Part shown: positions 12,115-51,953 of the stretch, piece by piece
Layout: each line of letters begins with the position of its first letter
Position numbering within the stretch: position 1 is the first letter of the stretch
Origin: a virus
Lineage: Duplodnaviria; Heunggongvirae; Uroviricota; Caudoviricetes
Virus record (IMG/VR): IMGVR_UViG_2698536392_000015
Span: 1-53,751 of that record
DNA length: 53,751 bases
Direction: 5' to 3' (one strand)
Notes under the pieces: generated by a model
The model's database searches: none
Seen by the model: only the letters and a program-made list of their open reading frames with translations
What the model was told of the DNA's origin: nothing
Program-made: the position numbers and the translations under genes

Positions 12115-12430
12115 CGTGCGGGTATTACTTAGACCTGTTCTGGTGCCTGAGCTTGGGCTGGTGGTCCTTAAGCCGGGCCGTGAATCCATACAGATATTTC
12201 ATAATCCTCGAGTGCTGGTGGAACCGGAACCAAAAAGCATGCGTAATCTGCCATCCGGAGTCGTTCCTGCCGTTCGCCAGCCGCTGGCGGAAGACAAAAC
12301 ATTGCTGCCGTTTTTTAGTAACGAACGGGTGATTCGTGCTGCTGGCGGCGTTGGCGCATTGTCCGACTGGCTATTACGTCATGTTACATCCTGCCAGTGG
12401 CCTAATGGCGATTACCATCATGTAACCAAG
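12077..12430 (+). pseudogene. Coding-like ORF running into the Mu-like left end, probably a host prophage gene disrupted by the insertion
   Basis: ORF stays open up to the junction and stops just inside the Mu-like end; C-terminal region is protein-like. Confidence 0.35.
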
Positions 12431-12776: not shown

Positions 12777-13388
12777 TTAACCAACAACATTTTTCTTTAC
12801 TGTCACTGCCCCTGATTCCTGGGTGGCGTTATTGCTCGAGTTGTACTTCTCAATAACGCGCAAAATCTCTTTGTCTGTTTCTTCACTTCCCGCCATTCCT
12901 ATCTTTATTGCATTTTTTAGTACGGGACGTAATGGCAAGGCATCAATGATGCTTTCTACCGCATCCTGGCTGATTGTAGATGTATTCATTGCTGCCAGCC
13001 TGACAAGGTTGTTAGTACCTTCTCGCCTGATGAATGTAAGGATTAATTGCTTCTCTTGGGGGCTTAGAGAGCTAAGCGCCTGATCAATACCCGAACCTGA
13101 ATCGCAATTATTTTCGATTTTTCCGCATTCATCTTCGTTCTTGCCTGTGGCCAACCATTCGAGTGAACAATTACAGGCTTTAGCTATTAAGGCCAGTTTA
13201 TCCAAAGGAGGGAAGTTTTTCCCCTTCCTGTAATTTCTTACTGTGGCTTCAGATAGTCCACAAAGGGTCGCCAGTTCGACGTTTGTCATGTCTCCCATAG
13301 CCATAGCTAAGCGTTCTGAAAATCGGTTTATTCCTTCCATATCAATAAACCGTTCCGCACTGGATACGGTTTTTTCTGCCTTATCCAT
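12777..13388 (-). CDS. Mu-like prophage repressor (XRE-type HTH)
   Basis: HTH (MTNVELATLCGLSEATVRNYRKGK); leftward gene at the left end, divergent from ner. Confidence 0.7.
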   Translation of the reverse strand: MDKAEKTVSSAERFIDMEGINRFSERLAMAMGDMTNVELATLCGLSEATVRNYRKGKNFPPLDKLALIAKACNCSLEWLATGKNEDECGKIENNCDSGSGIDQALSSLSPQEKQLILTFIRREGTNNLVRLAAMNTSTISQDAVESIIDALPLRPVLKNAIKIGMAGSEETDKEILRVIEKYNSSNNATQESGAVTVKKNVVG

Positions 13389-17792: not shown

Positions 17793-17866
17793 AGTTACTT
17801 CATGGTTCGGCTCTGTCATCAGGCCAGACGCCGGGTCAGTTATCCGAACAAAACGAGGACCAGAGG

Positions 17867-18139
17867 ATGAGTAAAGTCGTACGCATTATTTTCGAATACA
17901 AGGAAGATGTTATCTGCAAAAACTCTGATGGCAGCACGCACAGAGGGGTAAGTCTGGATATACGTTCAACCGGAATAAAGAAGAAAGATAATGGACCCGC
18001 CATGATTTTTGGGGTGGTTATGCTGGCAGAAAGCAGAAACTTCGCAGAGCTTGTGGCAATGAAAGCCAGTGCATTCATGAAAGACAGGGGTATGGCTTCC
18101 GGGGTTATTAACGGTAATGAATTTAATCAGCAGGGGTAA
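17867..18139 (+). CDS. Hypothetical small protein (90 aa)
   Basis: ATG 17867 with GAGGA RBS; N-terminus MSKVVRIIFEY resembles the next gene. Confidence 0.4.
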   Translation: MSKVVRIIFEYKEDVICKNSDGSTHRGVSLDIRSTGIKKKDNGPAMIFGVVMLAESRNFAELVAMKASAFMKDRGMASGVINGNEFNQQG

Positions 18140-22874: not shown

Positions 22875-23300
22875 ATGGCAGAAACTCAGATGAGCATGTT
22901 TGGTGGTGACAGTGAGCAACAGCACGCCCTTATCGACCGCCTTGATGACATCCCTGATGATGTTCTCAAAAAGAACTGGCCGCGGACCCTGTCTGAACTG
23001 GTTGAAGTCACCGGCGCAGAACTTCAGCGTCAGGGGATTGAGCCGGTACTGGCCGGTAAACTGGCACGCAAGGTGGCTGCGGCTCAGGCAGCCTATATGG
23101 GCGGACGGGGTTATTACCTGCCGGTCGGGGAATCTCTCTTTGCCGAGCTGCGAAACAATGAGATATTTTCGCGCTGGGACCGGGGCGAGAAAATTGAATC
23201 CCTTCGCCGCCATTACCGGATGTCAGAAACCCAGATTTATACCGTCATACGCGAACAGCGCCGTCTGCATCTGGCAAGAACGCAACCGCCACTTTTCTGA
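22875..23300 (+). CDS. Mor/C-family transcriptional activator
   Basis: C-terminal HTH ...LRRHYRMSETQIYTVIREQRR and YYLPVGESLF pattern typical of the Mor/C family; GGAGG RBS. Confidence 0.7.
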   Translation: MAETQMSMFGGDSEQQHALIDRLDDIPDDVLKKNWPRTLSELVEVTGAELQRQGIEPVLAGKLARKVAAAQAAYMGGRGYYLPVGESLFAELRNNEIFSRWDRGEKIESLRRHYRMSETQIYTVIREQRRLHLARTQPPLF

Positions 23301-23371
23301 TATTCCGCAAAGCCTGCCGCCTTTCCTTCACCGTTACGCTGACTCAGAGAACATCATGAGACAGCGTAACA

Positions 23372-30503: not shown

Positions 30504-30624
30504 CGGTCAGTGGCGGGGGTCGAACCCGCATACATGATCCACCCGGAGGCAGGCACCGACTTTACCAGTTAAGCGTACACTGACCGCCTGTTTATTTTAT
30601 ATTCATCCTTTATGCGGAGGCAAT

Positions 30625-31098
30625 ATGTCATCCATTGATGCCGCTGTCGTTGTTGACGTTACGCGTCTCCAGCGGGTCTTTGCCCGGCTTCAGTTTGTGG
30701 GTGGCGGGAAAGACCTGGCCCGCAGTGTGGCGTCCAGCCTTCTGTCATCCTCAGAAATGGCGTTTGAACAGGAAAAAGAGCCGGACGGCGAACGCTGGCA
30801 TGACTGGTCAGATCCTTACCGCAAGTGGCGTACCCGTAAGGGATACATGCCCGGCAAAATCCTGACGCTGAACGGCGATCTGGCCCGACGCCTGACCACG
30901 GATTATGGCGATACCTGGGCGCTGATTGGATCAAATGAGCCTTATGCGGCCATTCATCAGTGGGGTGGCCTGCCAGGTATGCCGCCTGGACCGGCGGCCA
31001 TTGGTGCACGTCCGTATATGGGTTTTGATCAGGTGGCAGAGCAGGAGATCATGGACGAAATCAGAAAACGCTTTAAAAAGGCCACAGAAACACCTTAA
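30625..31098 (+). CDS. Virion morphogenesis protein (Mu G-like)
   Basis: 157 aa; position between F-like and I-like genes. Confidence 0.7.
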   Translation: MSSIDAAVVVDVTRLQRVFARLQFVGGGKDLARSVASSLLSSSEMAFEQEKEPDGERWHDWSDPYRKWRTRKGYMPGKILTLNGDLARRLTTDYGDTWALIGSNEPYAAIHQWGGLPGMPPGPAAIGARPYMGFDQVAEQEIMDEIRKRFKKATETP

Positions 31099-31273
31099 TT
31101 GTTTAAGGTATGCAAATGCATTACCTTACCCCCTTCAGGCGCGTGTCGTGATTTTCTAACCTGTATTTAACGGGCTTTAAAATCTGCGTGAAGCGCCTTT
31201 GCATTTTTCCCTGAAAATACTTCCTGAAATCCCGCAAAACCCGCCCTGAAAATTCCCGGCTTATGCTGCCGGT

Positions 31274-32407
31274 ATGAAGACAGAAAATCACCCAAAAGAC
31301 GCAAATCGCCCCTCTGGTTTAGCCGTGCTTTCAGCTTCGCTGACTGCATCCGGCGACGGATGGTGTCAGTTACTGCCAGCAGGCAGGGTAAAGGCCCGTG
31401 ACGGTCGCCCGGAAAAACCGGCTGAAGGCTGGCTGATTAACGAATCCGCCTGTAACCGGATGAAAGCCGGGCTTTCCGCCCTGAATCAGCCGTTACTGAT
31501 TGATTATGACCATCACTCCATGAATGCGCAGAAAAACGGATTCAAGGCCATTGCCGCAGGTTGGGTTAAGCCGGAAAACATCGAATGGCGTGAGGGGCAG
31601 GGGATTTTCATTAAACCTGAATGGACGCCGCAGGCCCAAAAACATATTGATGACCGTGAATATGCCTATCTGTCTGCGTATATGCATTATTTCGCTGACA
31701 CCGGGGAACCCTACCTGTTGCGCATGGCTTCCCTGACGAATGATCCAGGTATTACGGGTATGAACCCTGTCGCAGCACTCAGTGCTGACGATCTCTATGT
31801 AGTTTCCCCTTCTCAGGAGCAACACCCCATGAATGAGCAATTACGCCAGTTGCTGACGGCGCTCGGTCTGACCGTGGCTGACGGTGACGAATTTACGCCG
31901 GAGCTGGGCACGGCGGCGCTGTCTGCCCTCACCGGGATCAAAACCCGTGCGGATGCACACGACAACCTGAAAACACAGGTCGCCAGTCTGTCGGCAGAGC
32001 TGGAAACCGCAAAAGGCACACCGGCTGGCGGCAGTATTGATCTGACGAAATACGTGCCCGTTGAAACGTATAACGCCCTGCGTACCGAATACGTTGCACT
32101 GTCGGCGCAGCACGGCAGCACCACGCTGGAGCAGGTGCTGGACAAGGCTGAATCCGAAGGGCGCATCTTCAAAAGCGAACGCGGCTATCTGGAACAACTG
32201 GGTGGGCAGATTGGTGTTGCTGCACTTTCTGCACAGCTTGACGCCCGACAGCCGGTTGCGGCCCTGACCGGCCTTCAAACCGACACCGTGACCGTGCCGG
32301 ATAAAAAGACTGCCACCGCTGTGCTGTCGGCTGAAGATATCGCGGCCGCCAAACTGCTGGGTAAAACCGAAGCCGAGTTCCTGAAAATGAAAGAGGAAAT
32401 GCAATAA
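31274..32407 (+). CDS. Head protease/scaffold (Mu I-like)
   Basis: 377 aa directly upstream of the major head gene. Confidence 0.75.
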   Translation: MKTENHPKDANRPSGLAVLSASLTASGDGWCQLLPAGRVKARDGRPEKPAEGWLINESACNRMKAGLSALNQPLLIDYDHHSMNAQKNGFKAIAAGWVKPENIEWREGQGIFIKPEWTPQAQKHIDDREYAYLSAYMHYFADTGEPYLLRMASLTNDPGITGMNPVAALSADDLYVVSPSQEQHPMNEQLRQLLTALGLTVADGDEFTPELGTAALSALTGIKTRADAHDNLKTQVASLSAELETAKGTPAGGSIDLTKYVPVETYNALRTEYVALSAQHGSTTLEQVLDKAESEGRIFKSERGYLEQLGGQIGVAALSAQLDARQPVAALTGLQTDTVTVPDKKTATAVLSAEDIAAAKLLGKTEAEFLKMKEEMQ

Positions 32408-33397: not shown

Positions 33398-33781
33398 ATG
33401 AATGAACATCACACTGTGGCAGCAACAGATGATTCAGGTCTTCAGGTCAGTGGTGACAATTCTGTCACGGTGCTGGCAGAAGTGCGTTGCAGTCGTTCGG
33501 CGTTTCGTCGTGCGGGGTTCCTGTTCACGCGTGGACGTCAGCAGGTTGAGGTCACCCCGGAGCAGCTTGCCCGACTGGAGGCGGAGCCATGCCTCACTGT
33601 GCGAATACTACAGACGCCTGCTGATGATGCGGGGAGCGTGGCGGGTGTGGTTCATGCAGTGGCCGGTACAGATTTAGCCGAAGCCGAAGCCGAAGCCGAA
33701 GCCGAAGCCGAAGCCGGACAGGATGCTCCCCGGAAAAAGACCGGTAACAAAGCGAAACAGGCGAAAAAGGCCCGCGCATGA
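33398..33781 (+). CDS. Hypothetical head-region protein with (AE)n repeat and basic C-terminus
   Basis: Track ORF containing a GCCGAA hexanucleotide repeat tract. Confidence 0.5.
   Translation: MNEHHTVAATDDSGLQVSGDNSVTVLAEVRCSRSAFRRAGFLFTRGRQQVEVTPEQLARLEAEPCLTVRILQTPADDAGSVAGVVHAVAGTDLAEAEAEAEAEAEAGQDAPRKKTGNKAKQAKKARA
33677..33718. repeat. Hexanucleotide tandem repeat (GCCGAA) x6 plus one imperfect unit
   Basis: Direct reading of 33677-33718; encodes AEAEAE... in frame. Confidence 0.9.
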
Positions 33782-47171: not shown

Positions 47172-47270
47172 GACGCTCCCTTTGTTGGGCCTTTACTGAA
47201 TTAACGCAAAATGGCGTTTATCGGTCTGTGGATATGATAATTCTGTTTATTCAGGAACAGGCTGATTATT

Positions 47271-49313
47271 ATGACGTCCAAATGGGTTCAACTATCATCA
47301 ATGCCCGGAAACTTTACCGTTAAAGTTTCCGGTGGTACAGCGGCATTTCTTGAGGCTCCCTTTCCTCCGGCCGAAACAAAAGGAGGAATGACATTTGCTG
47401 ACTGTCTCATCAGTTTTAATACACGGGATTGCCTGTGGGTAAGGCCAGTATCCGGTGATCCGAGTGTGGAAATTACCGGAGCGGGTATCGGTGCGGTCAT
47501 TCCGTTAAGTGCTGATGTTGCCGGTACTGCTGAACCGTCAGACTGGGATAATGCTGAAACACATACCCGTCCGTCAGGAAATGAAACTGCTTCCAGCTCC
47601 CCTTCCTGGTATTACGTGGTGGTTCTTGCTGGTCAGTCAAACGGTATGGCTTACGGTGAAGGTCTGCCACTGCCGGAGACATATGATCGCCCCGAACCGC
47701 GTATTATGCAGTTAGCCCGTCGCAGTACTGTCACGCCGGGAGGTAAAGTCTGTCAGTATAACGACATCATTCTGGCCGACCACTGTCTGCATGATGTGCA
47801 GGATATGAGTGGAAAAAATCACCCGAAAGCGGATGTGGCTAAAGGGCAATATGGCACCGTGGGTCAGGGGCTTCACATTGCCAAAAAACTGCTGCCGTTT
47901 ATTCCGGCAGATGCGGGGATTCTGCTGGTTCCCTGCTGCCGTGGTGGTTCTGCATTCACGGCGGGTGCTGACGGCACGTACAGTGACAGCATGGGTGCTT
48001 CAGAGGACTCAGCCCGATGGGGTGTGGATAAGCCGCTGTATAAGGACTTAATCAGCCGGACAAAAGCGGCACTGGCGAAGAACCCGAAAAACCGCCTGCT
48101 TGCTGTGGTGTGGATGCAGGGCGAGTTTGATATTGATGCGAAGCCGACGGAGCATTCTGCGCTGTTTCTGGCGATGGTGGAAAAATTCCGCGCAGACCTG
48201 GCTGAACAGGCGGAACAGTGTACCGGTGGCAGTGCTGCTGGCGTTCCGTGGATTTGTGGCGATACCACGTATTTCTGGAAACAGAAAAATGAACCGGCAT
48301 ACCAGGCAATCTATGGCGGCTACAAAAACAAAACAGATAAAAACATTCATTTCGTCCCATTAATGACAGATGAAAATGGCGCGAATGTACCTACCAACAA
48401 TCCGACAGAAGACCCGGATATTGAATCCATTGGTTATTACGGCTCAACGTGGCGTAACAATGCTGCCACCTGGACATCTGCGGACCGGGCCAGTCATTTC
48501 AGTGCCTGGGCGCGCCGTGGGATTATTTCCGACCGTCTGGCCACGGCTGTTCTGACTCACGCAGGGCGAACCACAGTAAAAGCCGATGTTCCATCTTCTG
48601 AAACTGATGCGCCAACGCCGTCACCTTCAGAAGCTGAAACAGTAACCACAACAACACTGCTGTCTTACCGTGCCAGTGAGTCTGAAGGGAAGCTGACCGA
48701 ACAGGGCTGGAGTGCAGGTGGAGGTAAAGCGGAAATTGTTGCCGATGAAGGTGCAACTGGTGGAACCGCGATGAAGCTGAGCAAGGAGACGGGTAAAGGA
48801 TCATGGCATCTGGAGCATGATGCCGGTACTGGCGCTGAACTGCTGAAAAATGGCGGCTTAATCAGTTGCCGCTTTAAGGCATCCGGTGAACTGGTGGCAA
48901 ATCAGTATGTCATTGCACTTTACTGGCCGGTTTCCTCTCTGCCGCAGGGTGTCACCCTGACAGGGGATGCAGGGAATAATCTGCTGGCAGCGTTCTACAT
49001 CCAGACAGACGCAAAAGACCTGAATGTGATGTACCACAATGCAAAAGTGGCGACAAATAACCTTAAGCTGGGAACCTTTGGCGCATTTGATAATGAGTGG
49101 CATACGCTGGCCTTCCGCTTTGCCGGGAATAACAGCCTTCAGGTGACGCCGGTTATTGATGGTCAGGACAGTACACCGTTCACGCTGACGCAGTCACCGG
49201 TCAGTGCATTTGCGGCGGATAAACTGCATGTGACAGACATTACCAAAAATGCGACTTACCCGGTGCTGATTGACAGCATTGTGGTGGAAGTGAAAAAAGC
49301 GGTAACAGAATAA
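47271..49313 (+). CDS. SGNH/sialate-O-acetylesterase-like hydrolase with C-terminal lectin-like domain (680 aa)
   Basis: VVLAGQSNGMAYGEG resembles the GQSN motif of carbohydrate acetylesterases; Thr/Ser/Pro linker then a beta-rich C-terminal domain. Confidence 0.65.
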   Translation: MTSKWVQLSSMPGNFTVKVSGGTAAFLEAPFPPAETKGGMTFADCLISFNTRDCLWVRPVSGDPSVEITGAGIGAVIPLSADVAGTAEPSDWDNAETHTRPSGNETASSSPSWYYVVVLAGQSNGMAYGEGLPLPETYDRPEPRIMQLARRSTVTPGGKVCQYNDIILADHCLHDVQDMSGKNHPKADVAKGQYGTVGQGLHIAKKLLPFIPADAGILLVPCCRGGSAFTAGADGTYSDSMGASEDSARWGVDKPLYKDLISRTKAALAKNPKNRLLAVVWMQGEFDIDAKPTEHSALFLAMVEKFRADLAEQAEQCTGGSAAGVPWICGDTTYFWKQKNEPAYQAIYGGYKNKTDKNIHFVPLMTDENGANVPTNNPTEDPDIESIGYYGSTWRNNAATWTSADRASHFSAWARRGIISDRLATAVLTHAGRTTVKADVPSSETDAPTPSPSEAETVTTTTLLSYRASESEGKLTEQGWSAGGGKAEIVADEGATGGTAMKLSKETGKGSWHLEHDAGTGAELLKNGGLISCRFKASGELVANQYVIALYWPVSSLPQGVTLTGDAGNNLLAAFYIQTDAKDLNVMYHNAKVATNNLKLGTFGAFDNEWHTLAFRFAGNNSLQVTPVIDGQDSTPFTLTQSPVSAFAADKLHVTDITKNATYPVLIDSIVVEVKKAVTE

Positions 49314-51824: not shown

Positions 51825-51918
51825 AATTTAGTATCAAAAAAGATGCTTATCGGCGCTTTTCATCGGTATCAAATGAAATGCAAATCGGTATCAAAAAAAT
51901 CGCCGCGCTATAATCACA
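51825..51918. repeat. Right-end transposase-binding repeats (attR, R1-R3 like)
   Basis: GTATCAAA at 51831, CGGTATCAAA at 51864 and 51886, inverted relative to the left-end motifs. Confidence 0.6.
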
Positions 51919-51953
51919 CTGAAACAGTCATTCACCGTTATGGTACCGGCGCA

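Follow-up and report, generated by a model that had tools for sequence, protein, structure and literature searches.

The window, by which we mean the whole stretch of 53,751 nucleotides analysed here, contains two genes homologous to G and I of bacteriophage Mu, with a gap of 175 bp (31099-31273) between them:

30625-31098, plus strand: gene G (virion morphogenesis), Pfam Phage_tail_S at E=1e-33, 54% identical to Mu G
31274-32407, plus strand: gene I (head protease/scaffold), Pfam Mu-like_Pro at E=2e-89, 52% identical to Mu I

Since the flanking open reading frames are the G and I orthologues, this stretch is the true G-I gap, as the preliminary description of the DNA had proposed from the letters alone. 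That description also placed the gap near the centre of the element, and we found it at 47.3% of a length of 39.5 kb, about 1.05 kb left of the centre; the corresponding positions are 48.7% in Mu and 47.2% in the Sakai prophage Sp18. The gap gave zero matches in an Rfam search, and we found no terminator-like site on its plus strand.

The element itself is Mu-like and of the Sp18 type. Alignment with the Stx phage record LC727895 delimits it at about 12421-51912, with the left end at 12421 (TGTAACC...) and the right end at about 51912-51916, nested in a lambdoid prophage. In the lambdoid phage mEp460_ev081 the sequences on its two sides adjoin each other (37189/37190, near the Q/rusA region), and the Mu-like element therefore sits within a lambdoid prophage. 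In the gap region, the window matches the LC727895 feature 'inserted Bacteriophage Mu-like phage' at 100% identity. A prophage of about 95% identity occurs in 228 complete E. coli genomes out of 5426, and many of these are O157:H7. The element in the window and Sp18 of E. coli O157:H7 Sakai are separate members of one clade: they share blocks of 78-97% identity, and the former has another insertion site, within the lambdoid prophage.

Several features of the element were observed in passing. Its right end reads ...GCGCTATA(ATCA), and at the junctions (12417-12421 and 51909-51921) only the 4 bp ATCA are duplicated, as against the 5 bp usual for Mu. Between 30600 and 34576 the window and LC727895 differ by 24 bp in length, possibly in the (Ala-Glu)6 run encoded by the open reading frame at 33398-33781; the syntenic gene of Sp18 is annotated as 'DNA processing protein', and PGAP names the product HI1506-related. 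The gap between F and G, which is absent from Mu, holds a tRNA-like element on the minus strand (30505-30584) that scores 31 bits against the Rfam tRNA model (gathering score 29). Its acceptor, D and T arms are good and its anticodon region is over-long (24 nt versus 18); ARAGORN made no call there, and PGAP has 'tRNA-OTHER' at the same place in two related prophages.

A predicted gyrase site in the left half of the gap

Mu carries a strong gyrase site (SGS) between G and I, and the preliminary description had expected one in the equivalent gap here. By homology it is present and orthologous to the Mu site, in the left half of the gap, with the following predicted parts:

31056-31185: predicted SGS, a 130-bp motif from -63 to +66 around the cut, placed in register with the Mu SGS
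31105-31127: imperfect 23-bp palindrome AAGGTATGCAAATGCATTACCTT, predicted core of the gyrase site, found by repeat search; its centre, 31116, coincides with the cut predicted by homology
31115-31118: predicted 4-bp staggered gyrase cleavage (AATG), uncertain by about ±5 bp, from the distance to the G stop as in Mu
31134-31185: right arm of the predicted gyrase site, by homology with Mu; invariant among haplotypes
31152-31159 (TTTTCTAA), 31166-31170 (TTTAA) and 31176-31182 (TTTAAAA): phased T-run/A-run elements within the right arm

The published gyrase motif spans 130 bp (-63 to +66), with a core at -16 to +19 and two arms of 47-49 bp that are wrapped round the C-terminal domains of GyrA. The annotated Mu cut is 17879/17880 (NC_000929), 20 nt past the G stop, and I starts 196 nt past that stop. 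The 133-bp Mu fragment of the Topo-Seq validation maps to Mu 17812-17944, so that it takes in the end of G and the first 85 nt of the gap, and centring on this fragment gives 17876-17879 as the Mu 4-bp cleavage block. The offset between Mu and the window is constant at 13239 from the G stop to the right arm, with no net indel, and we therefore put the cleavage block at 31115-31118 and the right arm at 31134-31185; the exact cut would fall near the former. So placed, the predicted site comprises the last ~43 bp of G, as its left arm, and the left 87 bp of the gap.

The alignment with the Mu gyrase site, which the preliminary description had named as one way to check its proposal, is in register. 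Over +18 to +67 the right arm shows 34 of 50 identities with Mu (68%) and 40 of 50 matches in AT/GC class, at offset 0 only, with at most 20 of 50 identities elsewhere; within it, GATTTTCTAACCTGTATTTAACGG of the window (31150-31173) aligns with GATTTTTAAACCGGTATTTAACGG of Mu. An AT periodicity of about 11 bp runs through the right arm both in the window, where 57 of 2000 shuffles reach it, and in Mu (4 of 2000 shuffles). The T-run/A-run elements of the window are spaced 12.5 and 11 bp apart, and such elements stand at conserved distances past the G stop in Mu, the window and six other relatives, as follows (in nt):

Mu: 36, 57, 69.5
window: 57, 69.5, 80.5
IMG/VR relatives L031, L032 and L034 (72-74% G identity): 35.5, 55.5, 67, 78
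L035 (72% G identity): 33.5, 55, 66.5
L037 (65% G identity): 29, 50.5, 61.5
Edwardsiella prophage: 33.5, 53.5, 65.5

Like the Mu SGS, the predicted site begins in the 3' end of G, is centred 18-19 nt past the G stop, lies near the centre of the genome and has T-run/A-run elements at +38 and +51. It differs from the Mu site in that its core is a 23-bp palindrome, of which Mu has none; in that it lacks the first of the Mu right-arm elements (TTTTTTAAAA at +17) and has an additional one at +62; and in lying 1.05 kb off centre versus 0.48 kb in Mu. As an RNA hairpin the palindrome is weak (z = -1.56), and its inner positions vary among relatives. A crude AT/GC (WS) template made from the published consensus had its local best at 31115-31118 and ranked the site of the window 711 of ~107,000 positions; the template is a weak one, since it ranked the true Mu site, our positive control, only 12.

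Conservation is sharply partitioned along the region. Among 26 close relatives, which represent 17 haplotypes, the variable alignment columns were distributed as follows:

3' end of G coding sequence: 14 of 96
core: 7 of 35
right arm: 0 of 52
repeat/promoter part: 21 of 71
5' end of I coding sequence: 50 of 117

The absence of variation from the right arm, as against 15-43% variable columns in its flanks, points to purifying selection, and it agrees with Mu genetics, where the left arm can be dispensed with and the right arm cannot. A small open reading frame on the minus strand (31121-31291) was considered as the source of conservation and rejected, because indels of 1-2 nt at 31203-31208 in relatives would break its frame. 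A perfect 10-bp inverted repeat, GTGATTTTCT (31148-31157) and AGAAAATCAC (31282-31291), has one copy in the gyrase right arm and the other in codons 3-6 of I; it is probably due to chance, and its right copy is not kept in Sp18.

The closest point of reference is Sp18, from which the window differs by one mismatch over 31045-31202. The Sp18 site is reportedly cleaved by E. coli gyrase both in vitro and in vivo, and is said to enhance processive supercoiling. A review gives the site of this O157:H7 Sakai Mu-like prophage as the only non-Mu site that supported Mu replication (PMC10052514, citing Oram & Pato 2004, J Bacteriol 186:4575). The gyrase site predicted in the window is thus already known through its near-identical Sp18 counterpart, and it is from the literature on Sp18 that cleavage and substitution for the Mu site are taken. 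The strong gyrase sites of pSC101 and pBR322 are likewise efficiently bound and cleaved by gyrase and have a high score for the 130-bp motif, but they are not homologous in sequence to the window, fail to support Mu replication and have no extended right arm of the Mu type.

A much more distant Mu-like element, from a metagenome-assembled genome of Proteobacteria (L007/L039, 32% G identity), has the strongest AT/GC periodicity of its 3.3-kb locus (~10 bp) in a stretch that begins ~12 nt past the stop of the G homologue. This periodic stretch could be that element's own gyrase site.

A predicted late promoter upstream of I

The right part of the gap (31203-31273) looks like PI, a late promoter dependent on an activator of the C type, on the basis of its sequence and of its counterparts elsewhere in the element:

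31223-31238, plus strand: predicted C-type activator element CCTGAAATCCCGCAAA, 16 bp centred at -43.5; motif shared with the lysozyme gene (lys) promoter, in the register of Mu PI
31256-31272, plus strand: inverted repeat CCGGC/GCCGG around the -10, read from the sequence; it ends one base before the ATG
31262-31267, plus strand: predicted -10 hexamer TATGCT of PI, spaced as at lys and the third site
22875-23300, plus strand: single Mor/C-family activator gene, presumed driver of the late promoters (Pfam Mor, E=2.9e-32)
23297-23340, plus strand: counterpart late promoter upstream of the lysozyme gene, motif plus -10 TACGCT (23335-23340)
47196-47238, plus strand: third promoter-like site, CTGAATTAACGCAAA, then 22 nt, then TATGAT (47233-47238), upstream of the open reading frame 47271-49313

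Mu late promoters have a -10 hexamer, no -35 and a 16-bp C-binding element centred at -43.5 (PMC2582627, PMC4461284; Margolin et al. 1989), and CCATAAY lies 23 nt upstream of the -10 in Mu Plys, PI and PP, as read from the oligonucleotides of PMC4461284. A consensus scan for two-hexamer promoters found no sigma-70 promoter with a -35 in the gap of the window. The predicted activator element is centred 31.5 nt upstream of the -10 and is in register with ACTCAAATAGCATAAC of Mu PI, to which it is identical at 9 of 16 positions (Mu register from the PMC4461284 oligonucleotides); relatives with 65-74% G identity have kept it upstream of I. Its dyad symmetry is unclear (2 of 8 positions symmetric by inspection), the Mu PI element being no better by the same count.

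Within the element, the spacing of the putative promoter parts is shared. Among ~107,000 positions, the best non-self match of the 22-nt block 31224-31245 is at 23297, immediately upstream of lys and just behind the Mor/C-family gene (18 of 22), and the 17-mer 31224-31240 matches 47196 at 13 of 17 positions. At lys and the third site the -10 hexamer follows the CGCAAA motif by 22-23 nt, a spacing common to all three sites. The similarity between the sequences upstream of I and lys is confined to the 22-nt block plus the -10: the 56-nt upstream segments are identical at 30 of 56 positions, no better than chance matches, and the lys site was not among the listed blastn-short matches to the region upstream of I. 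We found no motif at the equivalent of Mu PP within the N gene. The third site follows the invertase gene and precedes an operon, and it is conserved in Sp18 upstream of ECs_4993; the open reading frame that it precedes encodes a 680-aa cargo protein with SASA (sialate O-acetylesterase-like) and DUF6645 domains.

With 41% identity to Mu C and 27% to Mu Mor, the product of the activator gene is closer to C. Instead of the separate Mor and C genes of Mu, the phage in the window has one gene of this family; there was no second Mor-family gene among the other open reading frames scanned, and the annotations of Sakai and 2012EL-2448 list one each. This suggests a two-step transcription cascade rather than one of three steps. 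The immediate neighbours of the gene are gemA on one side and the lysozyme gene on the other.

The -10 starts 164 nt past the G stop in the window, 159 nt in Mu, 158-162 nt in the more distant relatives and 158-165 nt across Mu and all relatives. Only 6 nt separate it from the ATG, and the predicted transcription start (~31274) is the A of the I start codon, so that the message of I would likely be leaderless. The distance between -10 and ATG is 6-7 nt, with no Shine-Dalgarno sequence, in every relative except Mu, down to 65% G identity. An inverted repeat around the -10 is also seen in relatives (GACCGCC/GGCGGTC in L031, GACCG/CGGTC in L034), and Mu has CTGCTCA/TGAGCAG upstream of I. The predicted promoter thus resembles Mu PI in having a -10 without a -35, a 16-bp element in the same register and a similar distance past the G stop. 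It differs in the promoter-proximal half-site, CCGCAAA versus GCATAAC in Mu, and in that the Mu leader has ~25 nt with a Shine-Dalgarno sequence while that of the window is predicted to be lacking.

The repeats and the periodic tract

The preliminary description had drawn attention to three CCTGAAA(A)T repeats in the gap and had taken them as evidence for the gyrase site. The repeats exist, the first two lying one base to the right of where they had been placed (31209 and 31222):

31210-31218, plus strand: copy 1, CCTGAAAAT, exact; not conserved
31223-31230, plus strand: copy 2, CCTGAAAT, the shorter form; left half of the predicted activator element
31245-31253, plus strand: copy 3, CCTGAAAAT, exact; in the spacer where a -35 hexamer would be; variable
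31160-31279: strongest AT/GC periodicity tract of the window (period 12.0 bp), rank 1 of 53,632 segments of 120 bp

In dinucleotide-preserving shuffles of the gap, an exact 9-mer was repeated in 604 of 5000 (12%) and a 7-mer was present at least three times in 367 of 5000 (7%). The three-copy arrangement was found in none of the ten haplotypes of the repeat stretch among the 26 close relatives, 15 of which lack exact CCTGAAAAT or CCTGAAAT entirely. At the site of copy 1, where the promoter part of Sp18 differs from that of the window, Sp18 has CCTGGAAGC and HH35 and others have CCTGTCAGC, and at the site of copy 3 relatives have CCCAAAAAT, CCCGAAAAA or CCTGAAAAA. Given these shuffle frequencies and the loss in relatives, the repeats are real, yet neither statistically significant nor conserved. 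They belong to the late promoter part of the gap and are mostly incidental to it: copies 1 and 3 are variable flank and spacer, and copy 2 is the left half of the predicted activator element at 31223-31238.

Could the repeats themselves determine the gyrase site, for instance as its cleavage or binding core? They do lie in the correct intergenic gap, and they create phased A-tracts whose period near 11.5 bp was reached by only 1 of 2000 shuffles. But they stand 90-135 bp to the right of the predicted cleavage point, outside both the -63 to +66 motif and the 49-bp arm that wraps GyrA, in the most variable part of the gap. They have no counterpart in the Mu SGS, their number is within chance, and they are not kept in relatives of about 95% identity, including Sp18, whose site works in Mu. 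We regard such a role as exceedingly improbable; the repeats do not serve as evidence for the gyrase site and fall instead on a promoter-like element shared with lys. That they form an array of binding sites for another protein, be it a phage regulator or host Fis, IHF or H-NS, which would modulate late transcription or domain structure, also appears very unlikely. The three similar 8-9-mers are spaced by 13 and 22 bp, and the Mu domain depends on host IHF, Fis and HU (PMC3820752), which would fit an array; yet the copies are not conserved, inspection of the sequence gave no match to the IHF consensus, the lys and third promoters carry the motif once only, and the repetition lies within chance expectation.

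The periodic tract raises a different possibility, namely that the repeat stretch is a structural extension of the right arm. AT patches ~12 bp apart (31155 to ~31275) would then lead the DNA along a right-handed path off the GyrA wrap, and in the Sp18 clade the tract would join the gyrase right arm and PI into one composite unit, of which the repeats are the visible part. The Mu right arm is said to carry an unusually extended set of phased bending signals. According to a secondary source, sequences outside the central 140 bp matter, and both points speak for such an extension, as does the finding that 31160-31279 is the most AT/GC-periodic 120 bp of the window. The homologous Sakai segment likewise ranks 1 among the 49,881 segments of 120 bp in a 50-kb Sakai locus, although the two sequences are homologous and the two first ranks not independent. 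The 12-bp periodicity is specific to the I promoter in that it is absent from the lys and third promoters; however, it is equally absent from Mu PI and from PI of the relatives with 65-74% G identity, and in scans of more distant relatives the G-I gap did not stand out. The strongest 100-bp segment (31203-31302) has its centre on the promoter, not on the gyrase arm, and extends into the coding sequence of I, and the AT patches at 31206 and 31215 are lost in relatives (T5 to C-runs and GAAAAT to GTCAGC, respectively). The curvature of the gap, calculated by a wedge model with the parameters of Bolshoy et al. (1991), is unexceptional (ranks ~2-8%). On balance, we consider an extended arm of this kind, and with it the union of arm and promoter into one structural unit, unlikely. 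If it were true, the tract could form a right-handed superhelical exit path that favours capture of the T-segment, or could link the action of gyrase with late expression of the head operon. Besides such an extension of the arm, the tract may reflect the architecture of the promoter or be left over from a local duplication, of which a 22-nt tandem repeat at 73% identity would be the sign. A planar bend marking the apex of a plectoneme was rejected as an account of the tract on the grounds of the same wedge-model result.

A probable two-part control region

The reading that we favour is of a two-part control region, with a gyrase site on the left and the late promoter PI on the right, which was probably inherited from a common ancestor with Mu; the G-I gap of Mu likewise carries a gyrase site and a late promoter side by side. 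The preliminary description had allowed that the region might simply contain the late-gene promoter. This holds for the part that bears the repeats and fails for the gap as a whole, which has both features. Its observation is thus partly confirmed and its interpretation partly supported: Mu synteny led it to the right gap, and within the gap it chose the wrong sequence.

We propose that host DNA gyrase would place its DNA gate over the palindromic core and make a 4-bp staggered cut near 31115-31118, while the right arm (31134-31185) would be wrapped round a GyrA C-terminal domain, its phased T-run/A-run elements bending in the direction needed. In line with the proposal for Mu, the near-central site would be the starting point of processive supercoiling that pulls the prophage into a plectonemic loop, which would join ends that lie ~18.7 and 20.8 kb away and so allow transposase synapsis and replicative transposition. 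On the other side of the gap, the 16-bp element centred at -43.5 (31223-31238) would be the target of the one C-like activator of the phage (22875-23300), which would recruit RNA polymerase to the -10 TATGCT without a -35 partner. Transcription would begin at or beside the A of the I start codon and yield a leaderless I message. The orthology, the register, the conservation and the motif common to the promoters are results of the analysis; we infer the exact cut, the binding of the activator, the transcription start and the lack of a leader.

A central gyrase site lets a transposable prophage of 37-40 kb join its two ends for replication, and the central Mu-type site is the best-studied strong gyrase site. 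No new kind of element is found here, the same Sp18 sequence having been tested two decades ago. What the analysis adds is the correct placement of the predicted gyrase site, which extends into the G coding sequence and does not lie over the repeats, together with the finding that no other non-coding DNA of the region is as strongly conserved among natural variants as its right arm, in agreement with Mu genetics. It also provides a testable map of a late promoter, in a clade with a single C-like activator and probably a leaderless I message.
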